In this document: piece by piece, positions 12,166 to 43,713 of the stretch
Numbering within the stretch: the stretch's first letter is position 1
How the letters are laid out: the number at the start of each line of letters is the position of its first letter
DNA from: an uncultured Gemmatimonadota bacterium
GTDB lineage: Bacteria; SM23-81; DAOVCL01
Reading direction: 5' to 3'
Assembly: GCA_964626665.1 (NCBI GenBank)
Contig: CAZVGK010000017.1
Coordinates: forward strand, 1-64,000
Length of the DNA stretch: 64,000 nucleotides
Position numbers and translations under genes: made by a program
The notes under the pieces: generated by a model
The model's input: only the letters and a program-made list of their open reading frames with translations
What the model was told of the DNA's origin: nothing
Database searches by the model: none

Positions 12166-12168
12166 CCT

Positions 12169-27641: not shown

Positions 27642-29156
27642 ATGACTCGTGCTTTGACGCCCTATGAGGAACGAAACGAATACTATGCCACGATACAGCT
27701 TGGCAGGGATGTAAAAGCTCAAACAGAACTCATTAGTAGGCAGACACGGGAACTAGTTGCTACACACCTTGCCTCAGCCAATGGAATCATTGCCAGCCAA
27801 GAGAGAGTTTCGGAAGGCATAGATGAAATTTCTTACAGAATTGAAGACGTCGCAGAAGGTATTTATGGCCTAAAGGCGGCTTTTGAGTGGGGTATTGATG
27901 AAGTTGTCTGGCAGATAGAACAAAATAGAGAAGTTTTAAAAAATATATTAGAAGCTATAACCAAGCCACTTGATACGCAGGCGAAAGAACTGAGACGGCG
28001 TGCGGAAAAAGCTTATGCAAATGGGTGGATCGATGACGCTTTAGATGACTTTTTGGAATCGGAAAAAAAGAACAGGTATGATTTTGTGGTTCACATCAGC
28101 TTAGGGCATATCTATCTTTTTCACGAGCACAGCAACGCAAAAGCCTTAGAGTATTATGAAAAAGCGGTTAAATATGCCAGACCTGAGTCAAGTTATTATA
28201 CAAGCTATGCCTTAATCCACATAGCCTTTATAAAGTATCTCGAAAAACAGGTCGAGGAGACCGAACGTTATACAAAGGAAGCAATCCAGCTTAGTCCAGA
28301 CTTTACTGAGGCGCTTTATCGGAATGCACAGTACAACGCTGTTTTATTTAACGCTGACAAAGCTATCCCTTCTCTCGAAAGGGCAATTAAAATAGATGTC
28401 AACTACTGCGAGAAGGCAAACAATGAAAAAGAATTCGATGAAATAAAAGCAGATGTAAAAAAACTGTTTGAAAAACTAAGAAGAGAAGAAAAGAGTAAGG
28501 TTGACAGCAGATACAAAACTTTTAGAGAAAGACTAAACGCATTTAATGATCTTAAGAATCAAGTCAAACCTGAAGGCATTACAATGGCCGTAAATACACA
28601 GCTTGAGAACTATATGCAGAGGGTAGAGACCCTGATTCAACGAAACAGCTACCGCGACTATCTGGAAGCCGGGAAAATTCTCTCAAAGAGTGAAGATTTG
28701 CTAGTGCAAGAAATATCCAGTCTACGGAAAAAAGTTCAAGATAAAAGAGAAGAATGTAATGATTCAATAAAAGAATTTGAGACCGCGCATCGGCAGAGAA
28801 AAGAGGATTTTCAGGAACGTTTTTGGTTGTTTTTGTATTTTCTACCTTTAGCTGGTCTCCTTCTTTATCTTGCCATAATAGGACCTGGAGAAAAGAGTGG
28901 TACAGCTGAAGTCATTTTTGCTCTTATAATGGCCGCCGTTCCTGTTTTAAACTGGATTGTGTGGATACTTCTTATAAAAAACGACCCCGTTCTCTGGATA
29001 ATGACGATCGCATGTATTGCAGGTTATTGGATGATTTACGCTGTGCTGGCATCCAGAATTAGCAGTAACATAGAAAATTATAGAACGAGGATAAGACGCC
29101 TCGAAAGGATAGAGGAGATTTCTAGGGATATCGAAGGATATCGAAAGAGGTCTTAG
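27642..29156 (+). CDS. TPR-repeat / coiled-coil protein with C-terminal membrane segments
   Basis: SD AAGGAG; TPR-like ALEYYEKAV, EAIQLSPDF.EALY, LERAIKID; hydrophobic C-terminal stretches. Confidence 0.7.
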   Translation: MTRALTPYEERNEYYATIQLGRDVKAQTELISRQTRELVATHLASANGIIASQERVSEGIDEISYRIEDVAEGIYGLKAAFEWGIDEVVWQIEQNREVLKNILEAITKPLDTQAKELRRRAEKAYANGWIDDALDDFLESEKKNRYDFVVHISLGHIYLFHEHSNAKALEYYEKAVKYARPESSYYTSYALIHIAFIKYLEKQVEETERYTKEAIQLSPDFTEALYRNAQYNAVLFNADKAIPSLERAIKIDVNYCEKANNEKEFDEIKADVKKLFEKLRREEKSKVDSRYKTFRERLNAFNDLKNQVKPEGITMAVNTQLENYMQRVETLIQRNSYRDYLEAGKILSKSEDLLVQEISSLRKKVQDKREECNDSIKEFETAHRQRKEDFQERFWLFLYFLPLAGLLLYLAIIGPGEKSGTAEVIFALIMAAVPVLNWIVWILLIKNDPVLWIMTIACIAGYWMIYAVLASRISSNIENYRTRIRRLERIEEISRDIEGYRKRS

Positions 29157-29185
29157 TCGTGGCCTTTGACAGATGATAGTAGATA

Positions 29186-29465
29186 GGGCGTCCATTAAAT
29201 TATAAATTGACAGGGAAAATCCTTTTTGGGGCTTCAGGCAGCGCCAAGCACGAATTGAAGCAGGAAAGCACTTCCAATAGGGCAAGCTCCGAGTGAATTT
29301 TGCAATCGAGCGGTTAGGGGACTTGGTGTAAGTGCAATAGCTCTTGCTAAGAAGCTGGGGTTTTCCCGTCCGCGGTGAGCATCTCTGTGAAGGGGGGAGG
29401 AAATAGCCAAAGAAAAATGATTTGAAGTATTGGAGATGGAGTTTTTCATAATTTTATGGAAGTCC
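29186..29465 (+). mobile_element. Family A miniature element (internally deleted RAYT-like Y1 transposase gene with terminal inverted repeats)
   Basis: GGGCGTCCATTAAATTA...TAATTTTATGGAAGTCC; remnant RQARIEA plus GVSAIALAKKLG...VSISVK. Confidence 0.8.
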
Positions 29466-29482
29466 TTCCATCTCCTTATACC

Positions 29483-29614
29483 TTAGAAGGGGACCAAGTG
29501 AGATTTCTGTCTATCCAATGAGATCTACCGCTGAAGAACCAATGGAACAAGTTCCTGGTTGATTGGTTACCCAAAGCCGAATATGAGAAATGGTTAAAGG
29601 AAGTCAAGAAGTGA
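29483..29614 (+). pseudogene. 5'-truncated gene tail following the family A right end
   Basis: LEGDQVRFLSIQ*DLPLKNQWNKFLVDWLPKAEYEKWLKEVKK* with no start. Confidence 0.35.
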
Positions 29615-29680
29615 GAAAAGCAGTGTTTTTAGATAATCTCTTCTGGAAAAGAATGGTTGGTAAAACGACATCGGGATTAG

Positions 29681-30115
29681 GTGGATGTGAGCATTACACC
29701 AGATTTTATCCATATTGAAGTCAAAAAACAGAGTTACGAGATTTCGCTCCATGCAGATGATGAAAGAGTTGCCGAGGCTTTAACTATCTCTCAACTGGAG
29801 TTTGCCCTATTGAATTGCGAAATTATAGAACAATACTCCAATGATCCACGAGGAGAAAGTTGCTTGGCGATGGGCCTCACACCTGAAAAGACACCGGTTC
29901 ACATTCATCCTATGTGGAAATCCCTTCGGACTTTCGCTTCTCATCTGGCGAGAAAATATGGTGATTGTTTCTACTTATGCCTCATGAAGTCAGGCGGCGA
30001 GGCCGTTTACTTAGCTTTGAAGATGCCCTTATGGGCGTCTGTACCCAATCTTAAGAGCGGGAACCTGTCTTGCATTTTCAAAAGGGCCGAAACCACTAGA
30101 GGTCTCTTCCTATAG
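29681..30115 (+). CDS. DUF4258-like protein, probably truncated or chimeric after ...TPVHI
   Basis: SLHADDE...EIIEQYSNDPRGESCL..G.....PVHI signature; the remainder does not resemble the family and no partner gene follows. Confidence 0.6.
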   Translation: MDVSITPDFIHIEVKKQSYEISLHADDERVAEALTISQLEFALLNCEIIEQYSNDPRGESCLAMGLTPEKTPVHIHPMWKSLRTFASHLARKYGDCFYLCLMKSGGEAVYLALKMPLWASVPNLKSGNLSCIFKRAETTRGLFL

Positions 30116-30162
30116 ATTCATTCTCGTCCTGTTAGTTGTCGGTAAGATTAAGGGGGACAGTG

Positions 30163-30585
30163 ATGAAAGTCGCCTCAATTATGGCCGAGAGAGTCCTTAA
30201 GGTAAGAATGGATGATTCTATCGGAACAATCCGCAATATCTTGGAGCACGTTGAGTTTCACCATCTTTTGGTGGTGAAAGGCCGAGAATTGGTTGGTATC
30301 CTATCGGATCGCGATGTTTTAAGGGCGATCAGTCCGTTTCTGGGCACGCTCTCCGAGGAGCAACGTGACATGAGCATTCTGAACAGGAAAGTGCATCAGA
30401 TTATGACTCGGAACCCGATCACCGTAGACAAAGATACCAGCATAGAAACCGCCGCGAGCCTACTGTTAGAGAATAACATATCATGCCTCCCGGTGGTCTC
30501 ACCTGAGGGTTGGATCGAGGGAATCGTGACATGGAAAGACATTCTCAGGTCCTACGTGGGGGAAAATAAAACATTACCTGACTAA
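30163..30585 (+). CDS. CBS-domain pair protein
   Basis: MKVASIM...HHLLVV...GILSDRD; QIMTRNPITV...ISCLPVV...GIVTWKDIL. Confidence 0.88.
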   Translation: MKVASIMAERVLKVRMDDSIGTIRNILEHVEFHHLLVVKGRELVGILSDRDVLRAISPFLGTLSEEQRDMSILNRKVHQIMTRNPITVDKDTSIETAASLLLENNISCLPVVSPEGWIEGIVTWKDILRSYVGENKTLPD

Positions 30586-30647
30586 AATAGCTGACAGAAG
30601 AGAGAGACCTTTAAGAGAATGAAAATCTTTCGAGCCATAGCCAAGAT

Positions 30648-31301
30648 TTGAAAGAGAAGAAAACAAGAGAAAAACCCTCATGGGCCACAATAATAATTTC
30701 GCTCTTTGCAGTTGGCCTTTCATGTTACGCAACATACATCGCATCACAAGCGAGAAAGGATGCTCGAGCCGTCGCGCACCTCGATTTCCGTCCCCTGTTG
30801 CGTATTACGACACAACTTCAAGAGAGCAAAGGCGCTCCCCCACATTTGACTATTTGGAACATGGGGCCGGTCGATGCGATTCAACTGGAAGTCCAACTTT
30901 TCGCTCTTATTTTCTCTCCCGGACGTCAGAAAATCAGGACTATCGTGACCGGATCAACCGAGGAAAAGAGAATAGAGAAACTATCCACCTGGAATCGTGT
31001 ATCAGTATCACTCCCTGACCACTGGCTAAATGTCCAGGCTCGGACCGCAAAGCCAATGGAAAACAACGTCATGGAAATCCGGCTGATCTATCGGCGCGAG
31101 GCTGACCTAAGACAATTTGTTGAACGCGCTTTCTACTTCGTAAACCCAGAAGGCCAGTGGGTATCCGAAAACGATGGCTCTCTTTCCAAGGAAGTTTACA
31201 GTCCCATAATAAAAGCCGCGAACCAGACTCCTGCTGTTGGGCTCTTGTGGCCATTGTTCGATCCACTTCATCCCGCTGAGGATGTGATGGACAATTTTTA
31301 G
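30648..31301 (+). CDS. Hypothetical protein with N-terminal membrane anchor
   Basis: TIIISLFAVGLSCYATYIA followed by RP.L...N.G...A pattern. Confidence 0.6.
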   Translation: MKEKKTREKPSWATIIISLFAVGLSCYATYIASQARKDARAVAHLDFRPLLRITTQLQESKGAPPHLTIWNMGPVDAIQLEVQLFALIFSPGRQKIRTIVTGSTEEKRIEKLSTWNRVSVSLPDHWLNVQARTAKPMENNVMEIRLIYRREADLRQFVERAFYFVNPEGQWVSENDGSLSKEVYSPIIKAANQTPAVGLLWPLFDPLHPAEDVMDNF

Positions 31302-31320
31302 TAAACCTGAGGATATAACC

Positions 31321-31518
31321 AAGAAGTTCAAGCTCCTCATCGCCATGGCCTTAGATGCATCTCACGGAGCTATTCAGGGGGTGAAGGCATTGGCTCAGTT
31401 AGCAATGCAAGCTGGGGCCACGAAAGAGGAGATCGCCGAGGCATTGAGAGTTGTCCAATACATCAGTGGGGTAGGCAGCGTTTACACAGCCGCGCATGCT
31501 TTTGAGGAGTTATTCTAA
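31321..31518 (+). pseudogene. 5'-truncated carboxymuconolactone decarboxylase (CMD/AhpD)-family fragment
   Basis: KKFKLLIAMALDASHG...AMQAGATKEEIAEALRV; no in-frame start after the TGA at 31285. Confidence 0.7.
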
Positions 31519-31835
31519 TTTGAGTTAAGAGAATGTCCTTCTATTCATTTATTTGACCCCTAGATTTCCGCTTTGATATTTGTTATTACTACTGGCAGCC
31601 CTTAGCAAACCACTTCTCAATTTGAACCTGGTTGAAAAGCTGGTTTGTTGGGAAGGATAAAAGCCTTGGGTTTTTGGGGTTGGCTGATTTTGCTTGACAG
31701 GGGAAAAAAAGTTTATAGATTGGTTTGTGAAGTGTTGCCTTATGGAACTTATATGGAACAAGATAACCCGTGATTGGTTTAAATAAGGATGAGTAAACGA
31801 ACTCTGGAGATTCGAGACATGGCTGGGAGTAAAAT

Positions 31836-32624
31836 TTGCCGTTCCCCGAAGTAGAAAGAGTAATCTACAAAAGAAATCCTCTCGACCGAGTGATTTGTCA
31901 GTTGAGGTTTCCTCCTATTCTGAAAATAGATGCTGAAGTACCATCTGAATTTCAGAATAGAGTGCGAAAGGATTACCCAGGCTTCTCAGAGAAATGGAAG
32001 GGGGAGGTTCCTTGGGAGGTGAAAGGGCAAATCCCACCTGAGGTATCAAGTCAAATACTACAATCTTCTGGGAACAAGAACTACGAGTTCTCTTCGGATG
32101 ACGGCCAATGGAAGGTAAACTTAACACGCACTTTTATTGCTTTAAGTGCAAACAAATACAAAAGGTGGGAAGGATTCAAAGATAGACTATCTGGCCCTTT
32201 GAGTGCTCTAATTGATGTTTATTCCCCCGCACATTTCTCAAGAATCGGGTTAAGGTATATAGATGTAATAAGGCGGTCAGTATTAAACTTAGGTGATGTT
32301 GGCTGGAGTGAGTTACTTCAACCATACATATTAGGAATACTAGGTACACCAGAGGTGGGTAAGCATGTTCAGGCTTTCGAAAACGCACATGAAGTTCGTC
32401 TGTCGGATGGAGAAAGTATGGCTAGACTAATAACAAGGTTCGTAGAGCACACTGGTGATGGGGAAATATGCTATATGATTGATAGCGATTTCTACAACAC
32501 TAGCAAGACGGGTATCGATGCCACGATAGAAAAACTCGATTATTTCAACAAACGTGCATCTAGACTCATTCAATGGTGCATAACTAATCGCTTACATCAA
32601 GCCATGGAGCCTCAGATACTATGA
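31836..32624 (+). CDS. TIGR04255 family protein
   Basis: YKRNPL..VICQLRFP, Y..WE.F, RIGLRYID, YMIDSD. Confidence 0.85.
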   Translation: MPFPEVERVIYKRNPLDRVICQLRFPPILKIDAEVPSEFQNRVRKDYPGFSEKWKGEVPWEVKGQIPPEVSSQILQSSGNKNYEFSSDDGQWKVNLTRTFIALSANKYKRWEGFKDRLSGPLSALIDVYSPAHFSRIGLRYIDVIRRSVLNLGDVGWSELLQPYILGILGTPEVGKHVQAFENAHEVRLSDGESMARLITRFVEHTGDGEICYMIDSDFYNTSKTGIDATIEKLDYFNKRASRLIQWCITNRLHQAMEPQIL

Positions 32625-33235
32625 TAGACCATTATCAGGAAACCAATTCTGTAGTATTTGCGTTGCCTCATGAGTTTAGGACTTGTTCGAAGATAGCTGC
32701 GAGTTCTGGGCCATGTATTCCCAGTAAAGAGTACGAAGTTAAAACCAAGCAACTCAGTGCGCGCCCTTTCTTTATTGAGCAACTCGATGCACATCCCCTT
32801 TTTACTGAGCCCTCAAATGAAACAATTGGTGGAAGCTTCAAAGCACGCTTCTTGCTACTACCAGAGTATTCAAGTTTAGTAGGATGCGCATTGGATACTA
32901 TCCACCAAACGGAGAATCAGTATGTCGCCAAAGAGGCTAGAAAATTATTATCAATTATCCAGGGGGCGATTGCGTCCTTTAAACAATTCGGGGTTGATCT
33001 AGACTACCTTCCCCCATTGCAAGCCTTCAATGTTGATGATGGATCTGTCTTAATTGAATGGATATTTAGTAACTTTAGGATCGGATTCAATATTGAGCCA
33101 AACTCAGAAGATTCAGGTTGGTATTTGGTTTCAAACGAGAACTTGGGGGAAATCAGTGCGTCTGGATATACTTCAAGTATAGACATTACGCTGATAGTTT
33201 TCTGGCTTTTGAATTTTGCTCTCTCAAATTCCTGA
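32621..33235 (+). CDS. Hypothetical protein (middle gene of TIGR04255 module)
   Basis: ATGA overlap with upstream gene; DDGSVLIEW motif in C-terminal domain. Confidence 0.65.
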   Translation: MIDHYQETNSVVFALPHEFRTCSKIAASSGPCIPSKEYEVKTKQLSARPFFIEQLDAHPLFTEPSNETIGGSFKARFLLLPEYSSLVGCALDTIHQTENQYVAKEARKLLSIIQGAIASFKQFGVDLDYLPPLQAFNVDDGSVLIEWIFSNFRIGFNIEPNSEDSGWYLVSNENLGEISASGYTSSIDITLIVFWLLNFALSNS

Positions 33236-33237
33236 AT

Positions 33238-33660
33238 ATGAGCTTCCCAGATAATAGCATAAGAGGGATTCCAGATAAATCCTTTATGACTAATGATTCA
33301 TTCGGTTCCCATCTCTTCTATTTCAAAAAAGAACATACTAGAGATGATGGATGGATAGAACAATCAATCAACTGGGAAGATGATGACTCTGCAATTGAGT
33401 TTACCCTCAACCAGAGAAAAGAGAATGGACAAAAACAGTTTAAGGTAGGAGTTTTAATAATCCCTCGTGATGAAATAGATAGGCTTAAAAGACGCCCCAC
33501 TGTCAGCGGTATACTTTCGTATGAGAGGCAATACTTGGAGAATAATCCCTACCATGGGAATATCTTGCTTCAGTCGAACGTCCCAAAACCCATTATGAAA
33601 AGGATGGCAGCGGGTCTAGCATTAGCTGTGTCTATATTTATTCCCCAGCATCAGAACTAA
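33238..33660 (+). CDS. Hypothetical protein with possible ADP-ribosyltransferase-like fold
   Basis: ATG 2 nt after the previous stop; IRG, SINW and NPYHGNI spaced like R-S-(NPxH) motifs. Confidence 0.6.
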   Translation: MSFPDNSIRGIPDKSFMTNDSFGSHLFYFKKEHTRDDGWIEQSINWEDDDSAIEFTLNQRKENGQKQFKVGVLIIPRDEIDRLKRRPTVSGILSYERQYLENNPYHGNILLQSNVPKPIMKRMAAGLALAVSIFIPQHQN

Positions 33661-33890
33661 AAACGTCTACCCAAGATAAAACAGGCAATTACCTCAACTG
33701 CTAGTAAGAGATAGTACAAAGAACGGTTAAAGTCATTGTGTAGGGCACAAGCTAACCTCTCGCTAACCCAAGGCGTAAGAACTTCCCACTTTGGACGATG
33801 TGGGAAGTTTTTTGTTGACAGACCCCCAGAAGGAGGCATATTTTAGGGGTAATGGGAAACCTATTTCACGCTTAAAAGTAAATAGGAACT

Positions 33891-34281
33891 ATGGCTAAAC
33901 AGCAACTTAAAGATTCAGAATATCATCTATCCAGCAGAGGAGATCAAAAAGATAATCAACACCACCATCCATTTCAGGGACAGGTGTATTTTAAAGACCT
34001 TTGCCCAGACAGCAATGAGACGGTTTAAGTCGGCCAATTTGGATGTGAGAGATATTGACTTTGAACGAAGGCTTATAGATATTCGGGAAGGGAAAGGAGG
34101 GAAGGCGCAAACGATTCCGGCAACAGAAGATCTTTTAGGAGACCTAAAGCATCTCTTAGGCAAACATAGGAAGGAAGCAGTGTTTACTAACCCCAGTGGT
34201 GACAAGCTCACCGTCAGGCAGATCAACAACATTATAGCAAGACCAGGACAGCGAGCAGGTATCCAGAACCCAAATCCTTAA
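33891..34281 (+). pseudogene. Tyrosine recombinase pseudogene (frameshifted and C-terminally truncated)
   Basis: MAKQQLKDSEYHL, frameshift, then EEIKKII...RDR.IL..FAQTAMRR..L.V.DIDF...EGKGGK; lacks HxxR and the catalytic Tyr. Confidence 0.8.
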
Positions 34282-34294
34282 GTTCAAGGGGTTA

Positions 34295-34559
34295 GGGGTC
34301 ACATCTTTATTCTCGACTTTCCGATTTTTGCCTTAAACAACGCCAAGCGTTAACGCGAGGAGGTATCTCCCAATAATGTAAGCTCAGAGTCTACACTGTT
34401 ATTGGGTTGTAAGGGAACTTGGTGTTGAGTGCAACAGCTTTTGCTAAGAGGCTGAGTTTTTCAGCCCCTGGTAAGCATCTCCGTGAAGAGGAGGAAGAAA
34501 ATAGCCAAAGAAAAAGGAAACGTTAGGAAAAGAGTTTTTTATAATTTTATGGGCGCCCC
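34295..34559 (+). mobile_element. Hybrid element: GGGGTCACATCTTTA left end plus family A body and right end
   Basis: GGGAACTTGGTGTTGAGTGCAACAGC...TAATTTTATGGGCGCCCC. Confidence 0.72.
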
Positions 34560-34576
34560 TATTTTTCACGATGAGG

Positions 34577-34705
34577 GGTTATGCAGATCATATGCGATTC
34601 GATTATCGCAAGGCACAAAGGCATCTGAAGCGATTTGTGGAGTTTGGCCTGCTTGAGATGGTTGGCGCTGGCCCGGCCACGAAATACAGGATCTTGAGGC
34701 AGTGA
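34577..34705 (+). pseudogene. 5'-truncated winged-helix C-terminal fragment
   Basis: YADHMRFDYRKAQRHLKRFVEFGLLEMVGAGPATKY; lies between two family A elements. Confidence 0.5.
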
Positions 34706-34754
34706 TCACGACAAAAATCCCGACAAAATGTCGTGATCAAAGGAACATAAAGAC

Positions 34755-35032
34755 GGGCATAAAATTATAAATTGAAGGAGAGAAATCTTTTTGGGCTTCA
34801 TGCCGTGCGAAGTATGCATTGACATGGTGAAGTCCCCCAAAATGGTGCCAGCCTGCAGTGGATTTTGCTATTGCGCGGTGAGGGAACTTGGTGTTGAGTT
34901 GCAACAGCTCTTGCTAAGAAGTTGGGGTTCCCAGCTTGCAGGGAGCATCTATGTGAAGAGAGGGGAGAAAATAGCCAAAGAAAAAGGATTTGAAGTATTA
35001 GAAAGGTAGTTTTTTCAATTTTATGGACATCC
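34755..35032 (+). mobile_element. Family A miniature element
   Basis: GGGCATAAAATTATAAATTGA...AATTTTATGGACATCC; encodes MPCEVCID joined to SPKMVPACSGFCYCAVRELG...VKRGEKIAKEKG. Confidence 0.82.
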
Positions 35033-35067
35033 GTCCCCCTTATCGTCCTAAAAGAGGAGGTGGTTAA

Positions 35068-35289
35068 ATGCATAAGATAACTGCATATATTGAAAAGGAC
35101 CCAGAAACAGGGTTGTATGTGGCTGTTGTCCCAGGGATTCCTGGCGTCCATACTCAAGCAGAGACTTTGGATGAACTGCAAAAGAATCTTAAAGAAGTGG
35201 TTGAATTATGCTTAGAAGAAATGGACCCTGAGACTAAGAAGCAATTACCTGATTTTGTGGGTATCCAGCAGGTTGAGGTGGCAAGTTGA
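35068..35289 (+). CDS. hicB: HicB family antitoxin (short form)
   Basis: YVAVVPGIPGVHTQAETLDEL..NLKEVVELCLE. Confidence 0.88.
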   Translation: MHKITAYIEKDPETGLYVAVVPGIPGVHTQAETLDELQKNLKEVVELCLEEMDPETKKQLPDFVGIQQVEVAS

Positions 35290-35519
35290 GCCGAATTCAA
35301 ATTATAGATACTAAGGAAATGGAGAAACTACTGTTTCTGTTGGGGTTTAAGAAAATCCGCCAGAAAGGGAACCACGCTTTTTACAGGCATCCCGATGGAA
35401 GAATTACTACTCTTCCTCACCATAGAGGGAGAGTCTTGGCGCGTCCTTTAATAAGAGAAATCCTAAGAGAGATAGAAATTAGTGTTGATGACTACAATCT
35501 ATACTTGAAGAAGATATAG
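35286..35519 (+). CDS. hicA: HicA family mRNA interferase toxin
   Basis: LGF...RQKGNH..YRHPDGR.TTLPHH...L.R.IL; overlaps hicB. Confidence 0.88.
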   Translation: MSRIQIIDTKEMEKLLFLLGFKKIRQKGNHAFYRHPDGRITTLPHHRGRVLARPLIREILREIEISVDDYNLYLKKI

Positions 35520-35600
35520 ATGTAACTTCCGATAACACAGCATAAAAGGTTCGTACCTTACGGCACTCACCCAAACCCAGTGAAAATAACCAAAAAATCT

Positions 35601-35818
35601 GAGGTCAAATCTTTAAATACTAAATTAAAGGGCATCGCTTTCAGGGAACACTGAGTATCAAGCCTAAATTGCTAATTAGTGTCTGTCCGAATTCGCCATT
35701 CCCGCACGCCGTTAGCGGGAATCCATTACTGGCCTTAAGTAGATTCCGGCTTAAAGATTGCCGGAATGACAAGAAATATGGATGTTTCCGGACAGACACT
35801 AATTAAAGGTTTGACCCT
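35601..35818. mobile_element. Family C element (GAGGTCAAATCTTTAA...TTAAAGGTTTGACCCTC) with a nested MITE
   Basis: Imperfect terminal inverted repeats; related single ends at 34295 and 56370-56396. Confidence 0.65.
35679..35799. mobile_element. ~120 bp GTGTCTGTCCG MITE (copy 2, inverted)
   Basis: Perfect 11-bp terminal inverted repeats; TAATTA on both sides. Confidence 0.82.
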
Positions 35819-35891
35819 CTCAGGTTGTTCTCTAACTTGTTGATTCATGTTGGTTTAAACATCCCGCTCTAATAAAAAATTCAAAAATCAC

Positions 35892-35939
35892 TGGACAAAA
35901 GCGTCTACATTTATCATAATGTGTATACAGTTTTGTCCA
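35892..35939 (+). promoter_or_regulatory. abiEi promoter with overlapping inverted-repeat operator
   Basis: TGGACA-N17-CATAAT inside TGGACAAAA...TTTTGTCCA. Confidence 0.6.
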
Positions 35940-35950
35940 ATGAGGTTTTT

Positions 35951-36553
35951 ATGAATAAAAAAGTTGAGATGATATACAAAGTGTTTAGGAAATATGGTTG
36001 TTTTGCCAGAACAAGAGATATTCTGGCAGTCGGAATTCATCGCCGTGATATAAAAAGAATAAGGGACAAGGGAAGGATAATACGGGTAAAAAGAGGGTTT
36101 TATCGTCTCTCAGAGATTCCCGTTATTTCCAATCAAGGGTTTATTGACCTTGCCTGTGCTGTGCCTGAAGGAGTTATCTGTCTGCTCTCGGCTCTCTCTT
36201 ATCATGAGCTTACTACTTTCAATCCCTCAATCATATCGATGGCCCTCTGCAGGGGGACAAGGCGGCCTAAAATTGAATATCCACCTGTTCAGTTCTATCA
36301 TTTTTCTACCAAGCAATTTGAGGCAGGAATTGATGAGATAGAAATCAAAGGTCATAGGGTTCGTATCTACTCTCCAGAGAAAACTATTTGTGACTGTTTT
36401 CGATATCGTAACAAACTGGGGCTTGATATAGCTAAGGAAGGTCTATCTGAATATCTTAAGCGCAAGGATCGCAATCTGGAGAAACTGCTTGAATATGCTG
36501 AAATTTGCAGAGTGAAGAGACTTCTTGAGACCTGGATTAATGCTATGATTTAG
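35951..36553 (+). CDS. Type IV toxin-antitoxin AbiEi family antitoxin (orphan)
   Basis: N-terminal wHTH RVKRGFYRL, GVICLLSALSYHELT, YSPEKTICDCFRYRNKLG. Confidence 0.85.
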   Translation: MNKKVEMIYKVFRKYGCFARTRDILAVGIHRRDIKRIRDKGRIIRVKRGFYRLSEIPVISNQGFIDLACAVPEGVICLLSALSYHELTTFNPSIISMALCRGTRRPKIEYPPVQFYHFSTKQFEAGIDEIEIKGHRVRIYSPEKTICDCFRYRNKLGLDIAKEGLSEYLKRKDRNLEKLLEYAEICRVKRLLETWINAMI

Positions 36554-36575
36554 GAACAAAATAGTAGAGTGTGAA

Positions 36576-36873
36576 GGGGGCAACCCTCAGAAATAGACAT
36601 TGACCGTGATCGTATGTCTCCTCCAGTGTCTCGAAGGTGCTGTGGAAAGATTCGGCCTGCTGGTCAGGCTTTCTGCTTAAGGCCCAATCATTATCATATG
36701 AGGAGTTGCTGAGTAGGTGTAAGGATGCCCCAGCCACTTCAGTTGGGGGGAGGAACTGGGGGAACAAATGTGAGCTATGTAGCACAAAAGGTGAAAGAGC
36801 GTCTCAGTTGGGATGGCAGTTCAGGGAATTGGTTAAGAAGTGGATAAGAATCTATTATCTGAGGGCTGAACCT
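36576..36873 (+). mobile_element. Family B miniature element (degenerate)
   Basis: GGGGGCAACCCTCAGAAATAGA...ATCTATTATCTGAGGGCTGAACC; body shared with 42561-42897. Confidence 0.78.
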
Positions 36874-36942
36874 AATTCCCCTGACTTTCCTGTTTCACGT
36901 CTTTCGTCTTGTTAACTAACCTCATAGAAATATTCTCAAATC

Positions 36943-38673
36943 ATGGAACGAAACAACAAACCAATGCTTCCAAAAGAGCTTAGGTGTCCAAATTGTGGAG
37001 TTGAATTGGAATTGGAACACCGGGAAAGGGTAGAAAGAAGATTTGTTTGCCCGTCTTGTCAAAGTGAAATTGATTTGAGAGAAGAATTATTAGAAGAAGA
37101 AACTGATATCCGTCGTCAACCGGACGTTTTTACTCAGTTACAAAAAGCAATCTCTTCTATATTTTTGTCAGTCCAACCGTTAGAAAGGAAAATCCTCATC
37201 ACATTAGCAGGTATAGTGATTTATAGGTTAGGGTTCTATATCCCTGCACCAGGAATAAATACAGGTTTATTTAACGATTTTTTCTATAATACTACTAGCG
37301 CTTTATTGACCCATTCGATTTTCTCCTTAGGAATTAGGCCGTATATAATTGCCTCTATTTTGGTCATTCCGTTAGGCGGGGTTATCCCATGCCTAAAACG
37401 CCTTCGTGACGGGCCTGTTGAACAGCGCTATCAATTCGATATGATAGTTTATATTGCCACTATCATCATAAGTGTACTTCAAGCCGAGAGAGCAGCGGAG
37501 GTTCTGAGTAGCATAGATATCCTCGGCCGCCCTCTTATAAATTCTGGGTGGGGTTCCCACCTGATATATGTTCTTTCCCTAACCTCAAGCACAATGCTAT
37601 TGGTGTGGATTGCAGATCAAATCACTAAAAGAGGCATCGTGAATGGCGTAGTGCTTTTTTTCCTAATCGATATTCTTGCTCAAGTGATACCTTCAATTAT
37701 AAGGATTATAAGACGATTGAGCGTACCTACTGAAGGGGTTGATCCACTAATGAAAGGCATATTGTTACTTATAGTATATATCGCATTGATAGGGTTTTCG
37801 ATCGTCATAGTAAAGGCCAAAAGAAACATTCCACTCAAGCGGATCAGTCGGAGAGTAAAAAATGAAAAAAGCAGGGATACCGCACTTCCTATTCGGATAA
37901 ACAAAGTTGGAATCTTCCCCATTGAAATTGGGCAGAAGATCTTGTTTATACCAACTTTCTTAATCATTGCCTTCCCTAAAGGCATTTCCCCAGGATGGCA
38001 GGGCAACTTGTTAGATCCTAAGAATTGGCCTTACTGGCTGGGCTATGGAATTTCAATAAGTTTGTTAACTTATCTGTATTCTGTAATGAGCTATGATTCA
38101 AAAGGATTAGCAAATAAAATTGAGAGATATAGGTTTAAGATTGTTGAGGGAGATTTAATTGGAGATGTAGCTAAGTATCTTCATAAAATAGTAGAAACGA
38201 CTATTATACCGGGTGCCATCTTTCTATGTGGCATTGCTATAATTCCGTTTGTAATAAGTGTTTGGTTTGATGTAGGTTTAAACAGTTTTTTGGGGTATTT
38301 TCAACTTTTTGTTATTGCTTCCTGTATCGACATTTACCGCCAATTTCGATGGGATTTTGAAATAACTAAGGGAGTTAAAAACAACAAAAACTTGGGAAAT
38401 GTCGAATGGGTCCCTGTATTCACTGGACAAACGGTTATTGAAGGTGAAATGGTGCGGGAAATCCTTTATGAGTCTGGGATCGGATCATTTATATCCTCAA
38501 ATCAAGTGATTAGTGCATTAGGTACCCTCGCGTTCTGGGGAACCAGGCATCCTACTTATCCAACTCTCAAAAGCTATCAAAGGTTATTGGGACAAGAGCT
38601 AATGGAAGTCTTAGTTCCTTTGAATCGTGTGGAAGAAGCTGAGGAAATTTTAAAATCTAGGGGAATAGTTTAA
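36943..38673 (+). CDS. Divergent SecY homolog fused to an N-terminal Zn ribbon and a C-terminal DUF2007-like domain
   Basis: CPNC/CPSC; KILITL...YRLG..IP.PGIN, SIFSLGI.PYI.ASI, VWIADQITKRGIVNG, LPIRIN..GIFP; C-terminal VF......E.EM...L...GI...EVLVP....EEA.EIL. Confidence 0.8.
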   Translation: MERNNKPMLPKELRCPNCGVELELEHRERVERRFVCPSCQSEIDLREELLEEETDIRRQPDVFTQLQKAISSIFLSVQPLERKILITLAGIVIYRLGFYIPAPGINTGLFNDFFYNTTSALLTHSIFSLGIRPYIIASILVIPLGGVIPCLKRLRDGPVEQRYQFDMIVYIATIIISVLQAERAAEVLSSIDILGRPLINSGWGSHLIYVLSLTSSTMLLVWIADQITKRGIVNGVVLFFLIDILAQVIPSIIRIIRRLSVPTEGVDPLMKGILLLIVYIALIGFSIVIVKAKRNIPLKRISRRVKNEKSRDTALPIRINKVGIFPIEIGQKILFIPTFLIIAFPKGISPGWQGNLLDPKNWPYWLGYGISISLLTYLYSVMSYDSKGLANKIERYRFKIVEGDLIGDVAKYLHKIVETTIIPGAIFLCGIAIIPFVISVWFDVGLNSFLGYFQLFVIASCIDIYRQFRWDFEITKGVKNNKNLGNVEWVPVFTGQTVIEGEMVREILYESGIGSFISSNQVISALGTLAFWGTRHPTYPTLKSYQRLLGQELMEVLVPLNRVEEAEEILKSRGIV

Positions 38674-38686
38674 ATATAAAGACATC

Positions 38687-38892
38687 GGGGTCATTAAATA
38701 CCAATTGATAATGGAAATCTCAATGCACAATGAGCCAATTCGATGTGTGTGCAACAGCAGCTTTTGCTAAGAAACTGAGGCTTCCCCAGTCTGCGGTGAG
38801 CATTTCTGTGAAGAGGAGGGAGAGAATAGTCAAAGAAAAAGGATTTTAAAGTGTTGGAAAAGTAGTTTTTTTACAATTTCATGGACGTCCCC
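38687..38892 (+). mobile_element. GGGGTCA left end plus family A 3' half and right end
   Basis: GTGCAACAGC...GCTAAGAA...CAATTTCATGGACGTCCCC. Confidence 0.75.
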
Positions 38893-38971
38893 GTCCCCCT
38901 TCTTTTTCCCTTGCCCAGCCCCATATCAAGAGTGGAGTTGCATTAGCTGGAATACCAAGAGGTCAAATCAG

Positions 38972-39547
38972 ATGCCCGTACAGTATGTCAATAGAAAGGG
39001 GCAGACATATTATCTTCATCAAGGTACCATTAAGAGTGGTAAGCTAAGATATTTCTTCTCCATGAAGGGTGGGGGAACCCTGGTTGACGTCATACCGGGC
39101 GGTTTCGAAATCTACGAGAACCCAAATGCCCAAGTCTTCTTACGGAAAGTTCAACCCAAGATCATAACCGATGATGAAATTGCCATCGTAGAAATAGGGA
39201 TGAAGCGATTCTCTCAGTTACAGTATTACCAAATAGATGTGAAGAAGGGTGTCATCAGTGTGTTTGTGGCAAATCAGGATGTTGATCGCTTGTCAGATAT
39301 TCTGAGCTTTACTCCCAGAGCGAGAGATGCAAGCATTCAAGATTTACTCCCCCAACTCATATCCTATTCACCGATGCTTCGATTCGTTCTAATCGATAAG
39401 GAGAAGCGAGTGTTTGTTGCTCAGAGGTATTGCTTCCTGGGTTCGATTGATGATTGGATTGGCATAGGCACGCCGGACACCCTACAAAATCTCGTAAAAA
39501 GATACGTGAAACATTTGGGGCAAGATTCCTACTACGAGCTATCTTGA
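38972..39547 (+). CDS. Hypothetical protein, cassette-borne
   Basis: 191-aa ORF with SD GAGG, followed immediately by an attC-like site. Confidence 0.7.
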   Translation: MPVQYVNRKGQTYYLHQGTIKSGKLRYFFSMKGGGTLVDVIPGGFEIYENPNAQVFLRKVQPKIITDDEIAIVEIGMKRFSQLQYYQIDVKKGVISVFVANQDVDRLSDILSFTPRARDASIQDLLPQLISYSPMLRFVLIDKEKRVFVAQRYCFLGSIDDWIGIGTPDTLQNLVKRYVKHLGQDSYYELS

Positions 39548-39552
39548 ACCGC

Positions 39553-39683
39553 GCCTAACGAGTTGCTGCAGCCGACCCCGCTGTCGTGGCTGTTCTTGAG
39601 GTTGCGTCGCGGTTGCAGGGTGTCTTTCTGTGGGTCATCCCGTCGTCAAATCTGTATAGCGGCTGAATTTCAGGTCGCTCTGC
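39553..39683 (+). other. attC-like recombination site (degenerate R')
   Basis: GCCTAAC...TGCAGCCG...CGGCTGAA...; R' reads GCTCTGC rather than GTTRRRY. Confidence 0.5.
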
Positions 39684-39706
39684 AGGGAGAGAATAGGGAA
39701 TTGATT

Positions 39707-39937
39707 ATGGCAAACAAGTCCTTTGATGATTTGCTCGTTGTGGGAACACCGATCTACTTGATAAAGTCTTGGAGCCCCTGTTACAAATGCGGTTCCGCAG
39801 AGCCTGTTGTGGCACTCGCTTCGCGGAACATTAGCAAAGTTCCAGGAGATGATGTGTGCATTCTCAGCAACATTCAAGAAATGCCTGAAGAGATACTTCG
39901 GCTTATCCAGTCAAAATTAACGAAGGCCAGCCCTTGA
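39707..39937 (+). CDS. Short hypothetical protein with one CxxC (probably a truncated cassette gene)
   Basis: SD AGGGA; lies between two attC-like sites. Confidence 0.45.
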   Translation: MANKSFDDLLVVGTPIYLIKSWSPCYKCGSAEPVVALASRNISKVPGDDVCILSNIQEMPEEILRLIQSKLTKASP

Positions 39938-39951
39938 CATTGAACATTTTC

Positions 39952-40013
39952 GCCTAACCAAGGCATGCAACGGACGCGGCTTACTGCTACGCCGGTGATG
40001 CCTGTTGTTAAGT
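39952..40013 (+). other. attC recombination site
   Basis: R'' GCCTAAC; L'' GGCAT(G)CAACGG pairing with L' CCGGTGATGCC leaving an extra G; R' GTTAAGT. Confidence 0.75.
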
Positions 40014-40041
40014 GCAAAATCTAAGAGGGATGTAGGACTAA

Positions 40042-40549
<508 letters not shown>

Positions 40550-40591
40550 ACTCGCGCCCCGTTAAGCCGCCGCAGGTTTGGATAAGGGAGA

Positions 40592-40873
40592 GGGGCATAA
40601 AATTATAAATTGACAGGAGGGGGCCACCTTTTTCTTTATGCCATGCAAAACATGCATTGACGTGGTGAAGCATCCCCAAATGGTGCCAGCCTGCAGTGGA
40701 TTTTGCTATTGTGCTGTGAGGGACTTGGTGTGAGTGCAACAGCTCTTGCTGAGAAGCAAAGGCTTTCCCAGCCTCGGATAAGCATCTCTGTGAAGAAGGA
40801 GAGAAAATGGCCGAAGGAAAAGGATTTGAAGTATTGGGAAAGTAGTTTTTTATAATTCTATGGATGACGTCCC
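40592..40873 (+). mobile_element. Family A miniature element
   Basis: GGGGCATAAAATTATAAATTGACAGG...TAATTCTATGGATGACGTCCC; encodes MPCKTCID plus VPACSGFCYCAVR. Confidence 0.82.
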
Positions 40874-40910
40874 TTTATCCCTTCACTGTTAGTTACAAGG
40901 TCAGGAGATT

Positions 40911-41050
40911 ATGAAAAACAGCGTTGATCCGAAAGATGTCAAGAAACTCCTTAATGAAGCAATAGACATTGCTGACAATTTGCACCGCAATTTCGTTGAT
41001 GCTGCTCAAAGCATCGGATACTCCCGTGATGTGTTGTTACGTTCGAAGGA
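40911..41050 (+). pseudogene. Cassette gene truncated by the IS
   Basis: GTTAGTT, SD AGGAG and ATG; the ORF runs into the IS end at 41051. Confidence 0.5.
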
Positions 41051-42323
41051 CCTGGTGTCCTGTAAGAGCTTGAAAGGTCAACCTATCCCAACCTGATAGG
41101 TGGCCAATTCCTCCATAAACCAGATATGGTCTGTTATCTCCGCTGCCATTGCTGGACTACGGTGTTGATAACTACCAGATTCATCCTTTATCCTGAGGCT
41201 CCTGTGATCCCAACAGAAGTTGTAATAGCTAACAGAGAGCCAACTCTGGTTCACCCCGTTAGGTATGAAATTATCTAACGGGGTGAATATGATCAGCAAC
41301 CTTCTTTGAAAACTCATAGGTCTTCCGAGCCTTTCTGGCATTGAGATGCCGATCAGTGCCATTATAGCGTTCAATGAAAGCAACATTGACCTTCTTGGAG
41401 ACAGTTGACTCCTGCAGTGCCTGCTGAAGGGCCTCTCGGGTGCCAAAGACTAAACGAATCTCTACCTTTACTACTCTACCTCTCTCTCGCCTCTTACACA
41501 CGGTGGCAAAGAGAAGATCAGGAGGAGCCACCTTGTAAGGCTTCTTAGGCCGTCCAGGCTTTCCGGTAGGCTCTGGGCTTACCTCTTTTCCATAGGTTTC
41601 CAGGATGCATTTAGGGTAAAGCCCGTACTCATCGGCTGTCATGAGAGCTGGAGGCTGGCCACCATTAACCCGTAAAGAGAAGTCCTTGACCAATTTCCTT
41701 GTGTTCTCCTGGGTCCTTTTGCCCGGAACCAGAGAAACAACCAGCTTCTCTTTGCTGGCCAAGGCTACATGATCCCATTGATCGCCCTTATTGCCCTGAG
41801 CCTTCTCCTGTTCACTGAGATGTTTCTCTTTTTTTCCCCACAAAACTCCATTTCTCATCAAACTGGACTTCGTCTATAGCCAGATCCCGCACCAACTCAT
41901 CATGTAGGGCCTTGGCATGAGGGCCTGCTATCCTGTGTAGCCGAGAAACAGTATCTTTGGAAACCTCTACTAAACGACCTGTCTTGCGGATGCCACAATC
42001 CTCACCTAAGTGCTCCAGGATGCTGATGGCCTTTTCCAAAGGGAGACGACTTCCTGAAAGGGCAGTGTGGCTCCGTTCAGAGAACCGTTTGCCACAGGTT
42101 TTACACTGAAGCAAGCGAATGGGATTATTCTTTTCATATGTCTGTTGAACCATGATATTTCCATACCCTCTTTTTCCGTAATCTGAGCAGCCAGGATTAA
42201 TACAGCAAAATTCACTTATGTCTTTCATACTGAGCCTCCTGGTATATAGTAAGTCTTTCTAAAACTACATCTTAACTATACATCAGAAGCTCTAATCTTG
42301 TCAAGCCCAATTATGACACCAGG
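41051..42323 (-). mobile_element. IS1-family insertion sequence with disrupted transposase
   Basis: Ends CCTGGTGTC/GACACCAGG; InsA-like CxNxxC..CxxC + HTH (41812-42228), DE.WSFVGKK, TAD, ERYNGTDR, YYNF..H.SL, SPAMAA..TDH.W. Confidence 0.85.
41252..41285. mobile_element. 34-bp palindromic insertion within the IS transposase
   Basis: CACCCCGTTAG...CTAACGGGGTG; removal rejoins KKVADH to QSWLSVSYYNF in frame. Confidence 0.85.
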
Positions 42324-42347
42324 AGAAATTCCGAAACGTTAAATTCC

Positions 42348-42560
42348 CTATGGTTGGCTTAAGATAAGGGGGCCATTGGTGGTGATGGCAATTGTGTTTT
42401 CAAAGTGGGCAGAGAGGCTGCTATCAGCGGTTACCGCGGTCCACCCATCGGAGAGAAGCTCCGCCCTCCAGGTGCCCATATTTACCATTGGCTCCAAGGC
42501 CAAAACCATACCGACCTTGAGAAAAGGCCCGCGATGGGGGGGACCATAGTTGGGTAAGTG
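42348..42560 (-). pseudogene. map: 3' fragment of methionine aminopeptidase
   Basis: Manual translation HLPNYGPPHRGPFLKVGMVLALEPMVN...DGWTAVTADSSLSAHFENTIAIT..GPLILS. Confidence 0.88.
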
Positions 42561-42897
42561 GAGGTCAACCCTCAGAAAATAGATATTGACATTCTTGGGT
42601 GCCCTATTATTCTGGTAGTGGGCAAGCCGTTATGGTTTGTTGGGATCTTCATTGTCCCTGCAGGATACACACTTATGGTAAGGCCTTTGCGGCTGGAGTG
42701 GCCTGGAGCGCTCTATCACCTTACAGGGTGAGGAAACCAAGGGCAGGTGATCTTTGGCAATATTGGAATTTGGAGGGATTGTGGGAACAAATGTGAGCTA
42801 TGTAGCGCAAAAGGTGAAAGAGCACCTCAATTGGGATGGCCAGTTCAGGGAGTCGTGTGAGAGGGCCGAAAAAATCTATTTTCTGAGGGTTGACCCC
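42561..42897 (+). mobile_element. Family B miniature element (internally deleted RAYT-like Y1 transposase gene)
   Basis: Perfect 22-bp inverted repeats GGTCAACCCTCAGAAAATAGAT; internal MVRPLRLEWPGALYHLTG plus a C-terminal HTH-like remnant. Confidence 0.85.
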
Positions 42898-43158
42898 AAT
42901 TTTGCTCTCACCAATTCTGCTTCATGTGGGATTGGCCTACCGCTTGTTTTAAACTGTGAGAATCGCCTAATCCCAAGATGATAAGGCGACCCTCAGTTGA
43001 AGGATCATAATTAGTCACCAAGGTCTCAAGTAACGGAGCCGTCAGGATAATTTTCCTAACGGCTTCGTTTTTGTTTGTGGGAGTTCAACTTAGAAGCCCA
43101 GAGACAGATGTTACCTAGGTGATGTCTCCCATCATTAAGGGGTGAGGCAAACATTTCC

Positions 43159-43187
43159 TTGACAATGGCTCTACACTTTATTATTAT
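43159..43187 (+). promoter_or_regulatory. Putative sigma70 promoter for the carD operon
   Basis: TTGACA-N17-TATTAT. Confidence 0.55.
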
Positions 43188-43218
43188 GAAGTTTAGAACC
43201 TTAAGAAGGACCTGATCG

Positions 43219-43713
43219 ATGAGCGAACTCTTTTCCCCAGGTGACAAGGTCGTGCATAAGAGGTTGGGTGGGGGATACATTAAGTCGGTAGCCAAAAGGG
43301 AGATCGATGGAGAGGAGATAAACTGCCTGGAGATCGATTTCATTATCAGCAATACACGCGCCTATGTGCCCCTCTCTCAAATTGGGCTGGAGGGTTTGCG
43401 GAGGCCGATAAGCATCGCAGAGGTGGGAGTGATGAGGGGAACTTTGCTCTCTCCGGCGGCAGAGCTTGCCGGAGACTGGAAGAGCAGAGCCAAATATCTG
43501 CGGGATAAGCTCTGCCAGGGGGATCCCTATCGGATCGCCGAGATAATTAGGGATCTCTATCCAGCGGCAAATTTGGACAAATTGACTGCCACGGAGAAGA
43601 CGATCTTGGAAAAGGCCAAACACCTTTTGGCCAGTGAGATGAGTTTGGTGGAAGGGATTACTCTAAATGAGGCAGTGGGGAAAATAGAGGAAACCATAGA
43701 GGATAAGATTTAG
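43219..43713 (+). CDS. carD: CarD family transcriptional regulator
   Basis: FSPGDKVVH...G.G.I, YVP, GLRRP, WK.R, AEIIRDL, LLASE. Confidence 0.85.
   Translation: MSELFSPGDKVVHKRLGGGYIKSVAKREIDGEEINCLEIDFIISNTRAYVPLSQIGLEGLRRPISIAEVGVMRGTLLSPAAELAGDWKSRAKYLRDKLCQGDPYRIAEIIRDLYPAANLDKLTATEKTILEKAKHLLASEMSLVEGITLNEAVGKIEETIEDKI

Follow-up and report, generated by a model that had tools for sequence, protein, structure and literature searches.

Bacterial SecY is, to our knowledge, known in two guises only, namely as the essential housekeeping channel and as SecY2 of the accessory Sec system of Gram-positive bacteria, and we know of no cytoplasmic domain fused to the latter. In the channel protein, the cytoplasmic loops C4 and C5 together with the R357-type arginine mediate coupling to SecA and to the ribosome. 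A different principle of channel control is found in the PII-type proteins, which control AmtB and SbtA through a loop that enters the channel from its cytoplasmic side; in the PII topology, this T-loop lies between strands 2 and 3. The gene described here is located at 36943-38673 of the window, i.e. the first 64,000 nucleotides of contig CAZVGK010000017.1 of an uncultured Gemmatimonadota bacterium (GenBank assembly GCA_964626665.1), and encodes a SecY paralog with a predicted N-terminal zinc ribbon and a soluble C-terminal domain (CTD). The protein is very probably an intact member of a rare family of SecY paralogs, and this family is a third type of bacterial SecY paralog. A description of a family combining SecY with this CTD was not found in the full-text literature, in which subscription journals lie outside the coverage, and the available part of a preprint on SecA2/SecY2 (10.1101/202358) treats only the canonical and the SecA2/SecY2 systems.

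The gene and the parts of its product are distributed as follows.

36943-38673, + strand: SecY-like paralog gene including the stop codon, 576 amino acids (aa), recognised as an open frame with a Pfam SecY match of 160.1 bits
36964, + strand: alternative start at Met8 of the paralog, the position at which its closest relative, P0034, begins
36976-37074, + strand: predicted N-terminal cytoplasmic zinc ribbon, residues 12-44 (CPNC...CPSC motif and AlphaFold2 (AF2) model)
37177-38382, + strand: ten-helix SecY channel core, residues 79-480 (AF2, Foldseek and TIGR00967 alignment)
37393-37413, + strand: LKRLRDG motif particular to the family, where transmembrane helix (TM) 2b ends on the cytoplasmic side, residues 151-157 (family conservation)
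38125-38166, + strand: remodelled C5 loop without IPGxRPGxxT, residues 395-408 (alignment to host SecY and family columns)
38401-38670, + strand: cytoplasmic DUF2007-like CTD, residues 487-576 (Pfam match below threshold, structure matches)
38500-38601, + strand: long conserved loop of the CTD between strands 2 and 3, residues 520-553, consensus NRVI..TGTLAFWE..RP.FP.L.IHRRLGGG (family conservation)

The reading frame runs over 576 codons without stop or frameshift. Pfam SecY (PF00344) matches residues 125-454 over profile positions 1-295 of 306 (E 1.1e-46, cut-off 32.2 bits), and the NCBIfam equivalog model for SecY, TIGR00967, aligns with residues 82-468 at 160.2 bits, below its cut-off of 253.6. 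An AF2 model calculated with a family alignment of 34 rows (predicted local distance difference test, pLDDT, 85.4; predicted template-modelling score, pTM, 0.80) includes the C4 beta-hairpin besides ten long helices, with TM10 running on to residue 480, and it retrieves SecY chains in Foldseek with E values down to 5.9e-17 and target template-modelling scores (TMt) of up to 0.82. By profile threshold and modelled ten-helix fold, the paralog is thus placed in the SecY/Sec61-alpha superfamily. The SecY motifs, the N-terminal CxxC...CxxC and the soluble C-terminal domain which an earlier sequence-only reading of the window had pointed out are all present.

Compared to housekeeping SecY, the paralog shares the ten-helix fold, and its identity to the SecY of its host is 30% over 405 residues, but it stays under the equivalog cut-off, does not occur in an spc-type context and carries the zinc ribbon and the CTD in addition. 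Two SecY matches are present in the assembly (3.17 Mb, 99.65% complete): the housekeeping secY on contig C1 with 383 bits on PF00344, and the paralog with 162 bits in the same genome search. The housekeeping copy is surrounded by genes of L15, adenylate kinase, S13 and S5, as read from the translations without a family scan, whereas the paralog is not beside ribosomal-protein genes or adk and has AbiEi, repeats and uncharacterised open reading frames (ORFs) as neighbours. The genome holds one SecA (SecA_DEAD match, contig C7) and one SecE. Among the genomes checked, a normal secY co-occurs with the paralog in G061, G062, G064, G222 and G227-G230, with G063/G005 (78% complete) as the exception. 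SecY2 is likewise a second, divergent and non-essential SecY paralog beside a housekeeping copy. Yet, both SecY2 models fail on the protein described here, with 51.9 versus 249.6 bits for TIGR02920 and 60.3 versus 353 bits for NF009082. Moreover, SecY2 loci have SecA2 and Asp, while the island around the paralog is without SecA2, Asp and glycosyltransferase genes, and SecY2 hosts are Gram-positive, while the family is found in metagenome-assembled genomes labelled Latescibacterota, Gemmatimonadales and Bacteroidota. The proposal that the gene is a divergent second SecY in neither the spc-operon nor the secY2 context was therefore borne out by the checked neighbours and the 383-bit copy. Across the island and 13 other family loci, no dedicated SecA, SecE or asp partner adjoins the family genes.

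A word-index protein search retrieved only the paralog's own cluster and ordinary SecY proteins at 23-29% identity. An exhaustive HMMER search over 1.84 billion representative proteins returned about 40 clusters which share the architecture of SecY plus CTD, with matches running full length through the CTD. The paralog is thus no one-off chimera. The closest relative, P0034 (567 aa), is 38% identical and covers query residues 8-572. Altogether 182 proteins were collected, 39 of which, besides the paralog, contain the CTD motif, and two more align over the CTD; Pfam SecY is matched by all 34 rows of the family alignment. When a profile of the CTD alone was run against proteins of 171-2000 aa, 48 were returned, of which 47 carry PF00344 and the exception is a 185-aa fragment. 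Hence, among proteins of this length, the CTD variant is seen with this profile only in fusion with SecY.

The relation to housekeeping SecY was assessed with a tree of the SecY core (440 columns, CTD columns dropped by a 50% fill rule) which was calculated quickly under LG+G4 and without outgroup from 39 family rows, the host SecY and every second canonical-length match (55 of 119), with family fragments below 430 aa excluded. The 39 family and 56 canonical rows are split by a single branch with a Shimodaira-Hasegawa-like approximate likelihood ratio (SH-aLRT) support of 100, and several branches are long. P0034 and P0035 are the nearest neighbours of the paralog, while the host SecY stands among proteins which NCBI labels Ignavibacteria; the paralog is thus not nested among housekeeping SecY. 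This unrooted tree shows the separation from housekeeping SecY, but neither dates the duplication nor identifies its donor. Descent from the secY of the host was rejected, since the paralog groups with family members and not with the host SecY.

The family gene is maintained under purifying selection, with a much weaker constraint than secY. In five syntenic genomes (10 pairs), the ratio of nonsynonymous to synonymous substitution rates (dN/dS) is 0.25-0.38 for the paralog (dN 0.065-0.12) and 0.00-0.03 for secY, as estimated according to Nei-Gojobori at a guanine-plus-cytosine (GC) content of 71-72%, where dS is approximate.

What distinguishes the family from housekeeping SecY was derived from a column comparison of 39 family rows with 120 canonical SecY rows. 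Common to both sets are T87, P103-G104, the GI.PY of TM2b, W222..I227-T228..G231.N234-G235 (W..IT..G.NG in TM4-5), R294, N320..G323..P326..A330 (P..N..G..P.A in TM7) and P435, and the base of the C4 hairpin (R294, P..R.N..G..P) is retained in the family. Conserved in canonical SecY only are a GG before and KEGE.GR..I..YTR after TM2b as well as G172, S185 and P197, and the same holds for GGT and G405 of TM10. The C5 columns IPG.RPG..T amount to 86-96% in canonical SecY, but each to less than 45% in the family. Six near-invariant isoleucine columns (two each in TM2b and TM5 at i/i+4, one each in TM7 and TM10), which we take to be the SecY pore ring as mapped through conserved columns, show Ile at 92-95% among canonical rows, a share that does not exceed 31% among family rows. 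In TM7, where the canonical column has 92% Ile, residues of the family include E, R, K, N, S and T, and the paralog has E328 (37924-37926). The mean net charge is +1.0 in the family versus +5.9 in canonical SecY for the C4 loop, and -0.6 versus +1.3 for the C5 loop. In return, the family has gained LLLSG and L(K/R)RLRDG....F near the end of TM2b (R155 97%, G157 92%, L151 92%), where canonical SecY has Q/E/G-type residues at the positions of the LKRLRDG motif. Further gains are A224, R318 and A459 in the channel core and, within the CTD, W489, T497, E500, L508, R521, G527, W532, E533, R536-P537, P540, R546, L548, G550, G552 and V558. In sum, the family differs from housekeeping SecY by loss of the C5 IPGxRPG and the TM10 GGT, by relaxed isoleucines and by an about tenfold higher dN/dS.

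These changes can be followed in the paralog by alignment to the host SecY. Its plug segment, counted from the PG after TM1 to the G of TM2b, comprises 25 residues versus 37 in the host SecY; the median is 37 in canonical SecY (5-95% range 31-43) and 33 in the family (range 14-40). The C5 loop reads RYRFKIVEGDLIGD in the paralog and RYGGFIPGVRPGKRT in the host SecY, so that IPG(I/V)RPG is replaced by FKIVEGDLIG and the R357-type arginine, the numbering of which we presume from mapping through conserved columns, is gone. In TM10, LGYFQLFVIAS stands in place of GGTSVLIIVGV. A shortened plug, the replacement of IPGIRPG by FKIVEGDLIG and the absent TM10 motif had been suspected from the sequence-only reading and are confirmed by this alignment. 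Because the loss of the C5 motif is seen family-wide, the degenerate loop is not a matter of local decay.

With C4 and C5 altered in this way, it appears somewhat more likely than not that the family is independent of SecA and ribosome. An opposing explanation is that of a substrate-specific accessory translocon which, in a SecY2-like manner, would use SecA, SecE and SecG of the host, with the CTD or the zinc ribbon recruiting a client. Retention of the whole SecY fold, of the C4 hairpin base and of the TM2b GI.PY speaks for it, as does the AF2 model, whose top Foldseek matches are SecA-bound, substrate-engaged SecY (8ya3, 8y9z, 5eul; TMt 0.79-0.82), above resting SecYEG (5aww, 0.70); this closer likeness of the model to SecA-bound SecY is a hint only. 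The C4 loop of the window paralog (37822-37902) also keeps a net charge of +7. On the other hand, the C5 IPGxRPG is lost throughout the family and most members are without a basic C4 tip, the SecY2 models reach just 52-60 bits where their cut-offs demand 250-353, and a single SecA and no SecA2/asp gene is present in the genome, nor is there a conserved client gene at the 13 other loci. Taken together, we regard an accessory translocon as unlikely.

At the N-terminus, the cysteine knuckles of the paralog are CPNC at 15-18 and CPSC at 36-39, and the AF2 model shows four short strands at residues 11-40 with pLDDT 93-94. All matches of zinc-ribbon profiles from Pfam and NCBIfam to this segment are under their cut-offs. 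The ribbon is found in 6 of 39 family rows, and these six cluster together.

For the CTD, Pfam DUF2007 (PF09413) matches the last ~90 residues of the paralog with E 0.0038 and 17.8 bits, under the cut-off of 25.7, and it is found at E <=0.01 in 8 of 34 family members (best E 0.0007). Within the paralog, AF2 predicts a beta-alpha-beta-(loop 520-553)-beta-alpha arrangement; modelled by itself, the domain has a pLDDT of 73.7, with the loop below 50. The top row of Foldseek is the DUF2007 structure 2hfv (E 0.11, probability 0.97, template-modelling score 0.53), which VIA-align superimposes with Z 8.0 and a root-mean-square deviation (rmsd) of 4.1 over 73 residues, and Atlas models of DUF2007 clusters give template-modelling scores of 0.64 and 0.74. 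These structure comparisons lend support to a putative assignment of the CTD as DUF2007-like. The matches of the family members are likewise taken to be under the Pfam cut-off, and the ~30-residue conserved loop is specific to the family. Regarding the earlier proposal of a zinc ribbon and a DUF2007-like domain, motif, AF2 model and structure likeness speak for both domains, while the Pfam matches stay below threshold. Conservation within the loop is high, with G527, W532 and L548 at 100%, P537 at 97%, and E533 and R521 at 92%. Following 2hfv, weak Foldseek rows comprise PII-type proteins (GlnK, SbtB, PstA; E 0.3-0.7), ACT and SPOR, and no PII family is found among the 25 of 29 Pfam matches to the paralog that were listed. 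A complex prediction of the channel core (60-480) with the CTD gave a score of 0.01, which is no evidence either way.

Based on these features, the family would constitute an accessory membrane channel which has lost canonical SecA and ribosome docking and whose cytoplasmic mouth would be controlled by its own fused CTD through auto-gating or ligand gating; alternatively, the CTD may serve as a built-in substrate receptor. The paralog would have entered this genome horizontally, as part of a low-GC island of 18 kb. As a whole, i.e. an accessory channel without SecA and ribosome under control of its own domain and with the mechanism included, this statement is offered tentatively, and gating of the channel by the CTD, drawn by analogy, more tentatively still. 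The analogy is to PII in the pairs GlnK-AmtB and SbtB-SbtA, where, too, a small alpha/beta domain with a long conserved loop between strands 2 and 3 (T-loop position) belongs to the cytoplasmic face of a channel. PII regulators, however, are separate trimers, whereas the CTD is covalently fused, and as the structural likeness is at background level, the comparison can only say that the CTD might work like PII. The idea of a ligand-gated pore, already raised by the sequence-only reading, would be compatible with a PII/DUF2007-like domain. In its most specific form, a SecY-derived self-regulated pore in which this domain inserts its loop into the cytoplasmic funnel against LRRLRDG on a cellular signal, the mechanism is possible but rather unlikely.

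Several observations weigh against channel control by the fused domain. The best VIA-align matches of the CTD are ring-building motifs of type III secretion systems (T3SS) with Z 9.3-10.4, above the Z 8.0 of DUF2007, and the PII-like chains attain only Z 5.3-5.7, which equals background level. In the T3SS case (PrgK, EscJ, MxiJ), the CTD core with the loop trimmed superimposes at an rmsd of 1.5-1.7 A over 58-60 residues; those domains, however, are periplasmic, form rings and share 8-18% identity with the CTD, hence a resemblance in fold only. The conserved loop is modelled at low confidence, with a pLDDT of about 50-60. An Rfam scan of 145 kb near the gene found one tRNA only and no riboswitch. 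Selection on the family gene is relaxed, and the gene is broken at two of the 13 other loci, through an insertion sequence (IS) in L013 and through truncation in L018. Furthermore, the window paralog is alone in the family with its canonical-like basic C4 loop, and it departs from the family at five of the 32 positions conserved to >=85%, four of these being among the 14 such positions of the CTD (R521Q, E533G and G552E included), in addition to R536H at a position conserved to 77%. Its deviance ranks tied third overall and tied first in the CTD. The window paralog may consequently act unlike its family or be drifting.

The latter possibility, taken to its end, would make the window paralog a functionless relic, acquired horizontally, with the frame still intact but selection gone. 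Its surroundings are decayed, in that the integrase is reduced to a fragment, AbiEi is orphaned, the IS1-like transposase is split and repeats resemble miniature inverted-repeat transposable elements (MITEs); the altered CTD positions, 4 of 14 strongly conserved ones including E533G, are tied for the most in the family; both same-genus genomes are without the paralog, and two other family loci are broken. Opposed to this are the 576 uninterrupted codons, the 27 of 32 conserved positions that are kept and the AF2 pLDDT of 85. In addition, the 90% cluster of the paralog consists of five database records that are identical apart from start calls, and a 94%-identical N-terminal fragment exists elsewhere in the databases. 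We therefore consider a relic quite unlikely, below the accessory translocon in probability.

Turning from the protein to its surroundings, the gene is part of a variable low-GC island with dispersed repeats on both sides of the gene.

24749-43140, no strand assigned: low-GC variable island holding the paralog, from the PcrB-family gene to carD (GC and gene content)
36561-36877, + strand: dispersed repeat of type B upstream of the paralog, reproducing part of the element at 42540-42910 (repeat analysis; nine genome matches)
38744-38885, + strand: downstream dispersed repeat, type A (repeat analysis; ten genome matches)

The GC content is 0.387 for the paralog, 0.422 for the island and 0.519 for the rest of the window, and the island is bordered by the PcrB-family gene (23810-24592) and carD (43219). 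Its genes comprise a HinP1I-like restriction-modification pair, genes for a TPR protein and for DUF4258 and CBS proteins, an 88-aa integrase fragment, HicBA, AbiEi without AbiEii, the paralog, two uncharacterised ORFs, BrnT and a split IS1-like transposase. At the left edge, the GC-poorest part of the island (24749-27474, GC 0.35), an R.HinP1I-like type II restriction enzyme is accompanied by a 631-aa methyltransferase. The integrase fragment (34015-34281) is a tyrosine recombinase remnant of 88 aa (Phage_integrase, profile 36-124 of 172) and not an intact integrase. AbiEi (35921-36553) is a full-length antitoxin/regulator with 228 bits in PADLOC; it is followed by no AbiEii toxin gene, but by the type B repeat and then the paralog. 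AbiEi as a regulator of the paralog was dropped as a candidate, as no AbiEi is present at any other locus. At the right end, the IS1-like transposase (41271-42228, - strand) is encoded as two overlapping ORFs of 138 aa and 196 aa, and this split may reflect a programmed frameshift or decay. A sigma-70 promoter for the paralog was rejected, consensus matches being no commoner than in shuffled sequence.

The type B repeat is ~360 bp long and bears inverted repeats of 32 nt at its termini (42556-42587 / 42871-42902). Its copies contain ORF calls at 36637-36915 (92 aa, without a Pfam match) and 42754-42981, both probably spurious. In the ORF at 42558-42731, a PGALYH-type string occurs, which may be of the kind seen at the N-termini of IS200/RAYT-type Y1 transposases. 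The type A repeat, of ~280 bp with inverted-complementary ends of the CATAAAATTATAAA type, exists in copies that are 73-87% identical. Seven of its ten genome matches lie in the island, the query copy included, and every island copy is on the + strand. Copies at 27493-27544, 29193-29460, 34397-34552, 34751-35027, 38744-38885 and 40580-40870 sit just 3' of the genes of the methyltransferase, the TPR protein, the integrase fragment, the SecY paralog and BrnT/A. Thus, this repeat looks like a MITE or a cassette-boundary repeat.

In both same-genus genomes, the sequence upstream of carD differs, so the paralog is located in a variable, horizontally acquired region here. In one of them (L041, G001:C86), carD adjoins, in inverted orientation, sequence that is 40 kb distant in the window (540-2621 versus 43143-43461), which points to a rearrangement breakpoint where the island ends on the right. 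The description of an AT-rich gene flanked by element ends among defence and toxin-antitoxin genes is accurate for this locus, with repeats on both sides and the restriction-modification pair, HicBA, AbiEi and BrnT nearby. As to the gene being mobile itself, only its region reads as horizontally acquired from the sequence.

The distribution of the family is sparse. A CTD profile found it in 9 of 168 genomes in the phylum of the Latescibacterota-labelled G061 and, for the phylum of the Gemmatimonadales-labelled G062, in a single one of 401 genomes sampled, namely the seed genome G062 itself. Among 60 relatives of the present genome, the paralog occurs only in G005, which belongs to the same phylum and another family, and both same-genus genomes carry a normal secY without the paralog; one family cluster member is labelled Bacteroidota. 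A search for further loci with a six-row family alignment gave four in genomes and two in metagenomes, and viral contigs had no match. Contexts at the 13 other loci are mostly metabolic or housekeeping, varying between clades and syntenic within them, where ORF calls are crude in loci of 65-72% GC and neighbour lists there approximate.

L016 and L030: MR_MLE ... paralog - 2-Hacid_dh ... ABC-F ... amidase
L031-L034: hydantoinase or amidohydrolase - paralog - GFO_IDH_MocA oxidoreductase, in L034 with a nearby TacA-type antitoxin gene
L029: paralog with a Kdo transferase gene on one side and HIT/ApbE genes on the other
L013, 9707-13155: complete Latescibacterota-labelled chromosome, where a DDE_Tnp_1 transposase gene (11461-12579) splits the family gene in the codons of the C5 loop
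L018, 10001-10837: metagenome contig of GC 0.37 with the C-terminal half only (query residues 239-531) and unrelated, decayed sequence upstream

Just upstream of the L013 family gene, tyrosine integrase, rve transposase and Zn_ribbon_TFIIB genes are found. The 191-aa and 124-aa downstream ORFs and the other island ORFs were ruled out as conserved partners, since tblastn of eight island proteins against the 13 other loci yielded no matches.

These contexts bear on a further explanation, an anti-phage or abortive-infection pore on a defence island which would depolarise the cell when triggered. The island here holds a type II restriction-modification pair, AbiEi, HicBA and BrnT, the gene of L013 has an integrase and transposases next to it and that of L034 the TacA-type antitoxin gene nearby, and relaxed pore residues together with a short plug would suit leakiness. 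Set against this, the protein has no PADLOC match (E <=1), and for 111 ORFs that neighbour the gene at 10 other loci (L031-L033 not among them), PADLOC gave only generic domains (ABC-F, methyltransferases, ArsR, RidA), but no system. Most contexts are metabolic, with synteny inside each clade, and no island neighbour recurs at other loci. Neither do phage and plasmid records hold the architecture of SecY plus CTD in any match covering >=80% of the protein, nor is there a match in viral contigs. A defence pore is consequently very unlikely. Of the sequence-only reading, the defence association does not extend to the family, as no PADLOC model applies and the 13 other loci lack a recognisable system, with the L034 antitoxin gene as a partial exception; the term mobile fits the variable low-GC island here but, apart from L013 with its integrase and transposase genes, not the other loci, which are mostly metabolic and never on phage, plasmid or viral contigs.

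Least probable of all, and hardly credible, is a decoy or sponge, i.e. an inactive SecY look-alike which titrates phage or contact-dependent toxins or sequesters SecE, SecG or YidC. Circumstantially, the periplasmic and lateral-gate scaffold is retained, and two contact-dependent inhibition toxins are reported to exploit SecY for entry (PMC7858069). No result points to a decoy, however, the family contexts are not conflict-related, and the conserved CTD loop and the LRRLRDG motif would be left unexplained.

The preferred reading therefore stays with an accessory channel under the possible control of its fused CTD. At present, databases list family members as 'preprotein translocase subunit SecY' or as 'hypothetical protein', and both names mislead. 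A third, standalone SecY lineage which has shed the docking motifs for motor and ribosome and always brings its own cytoplasmic domain would show that the translocon scaffold is reusable, and it would offer a natural experiment on the SecY features needed for gating, sealing and partner binding. At the same time, the widespread and uncharacterised DUF2007 domain would be given a concrete partner. If true, the self-regulated pore would represent a new functional class in the SecY superfamily.

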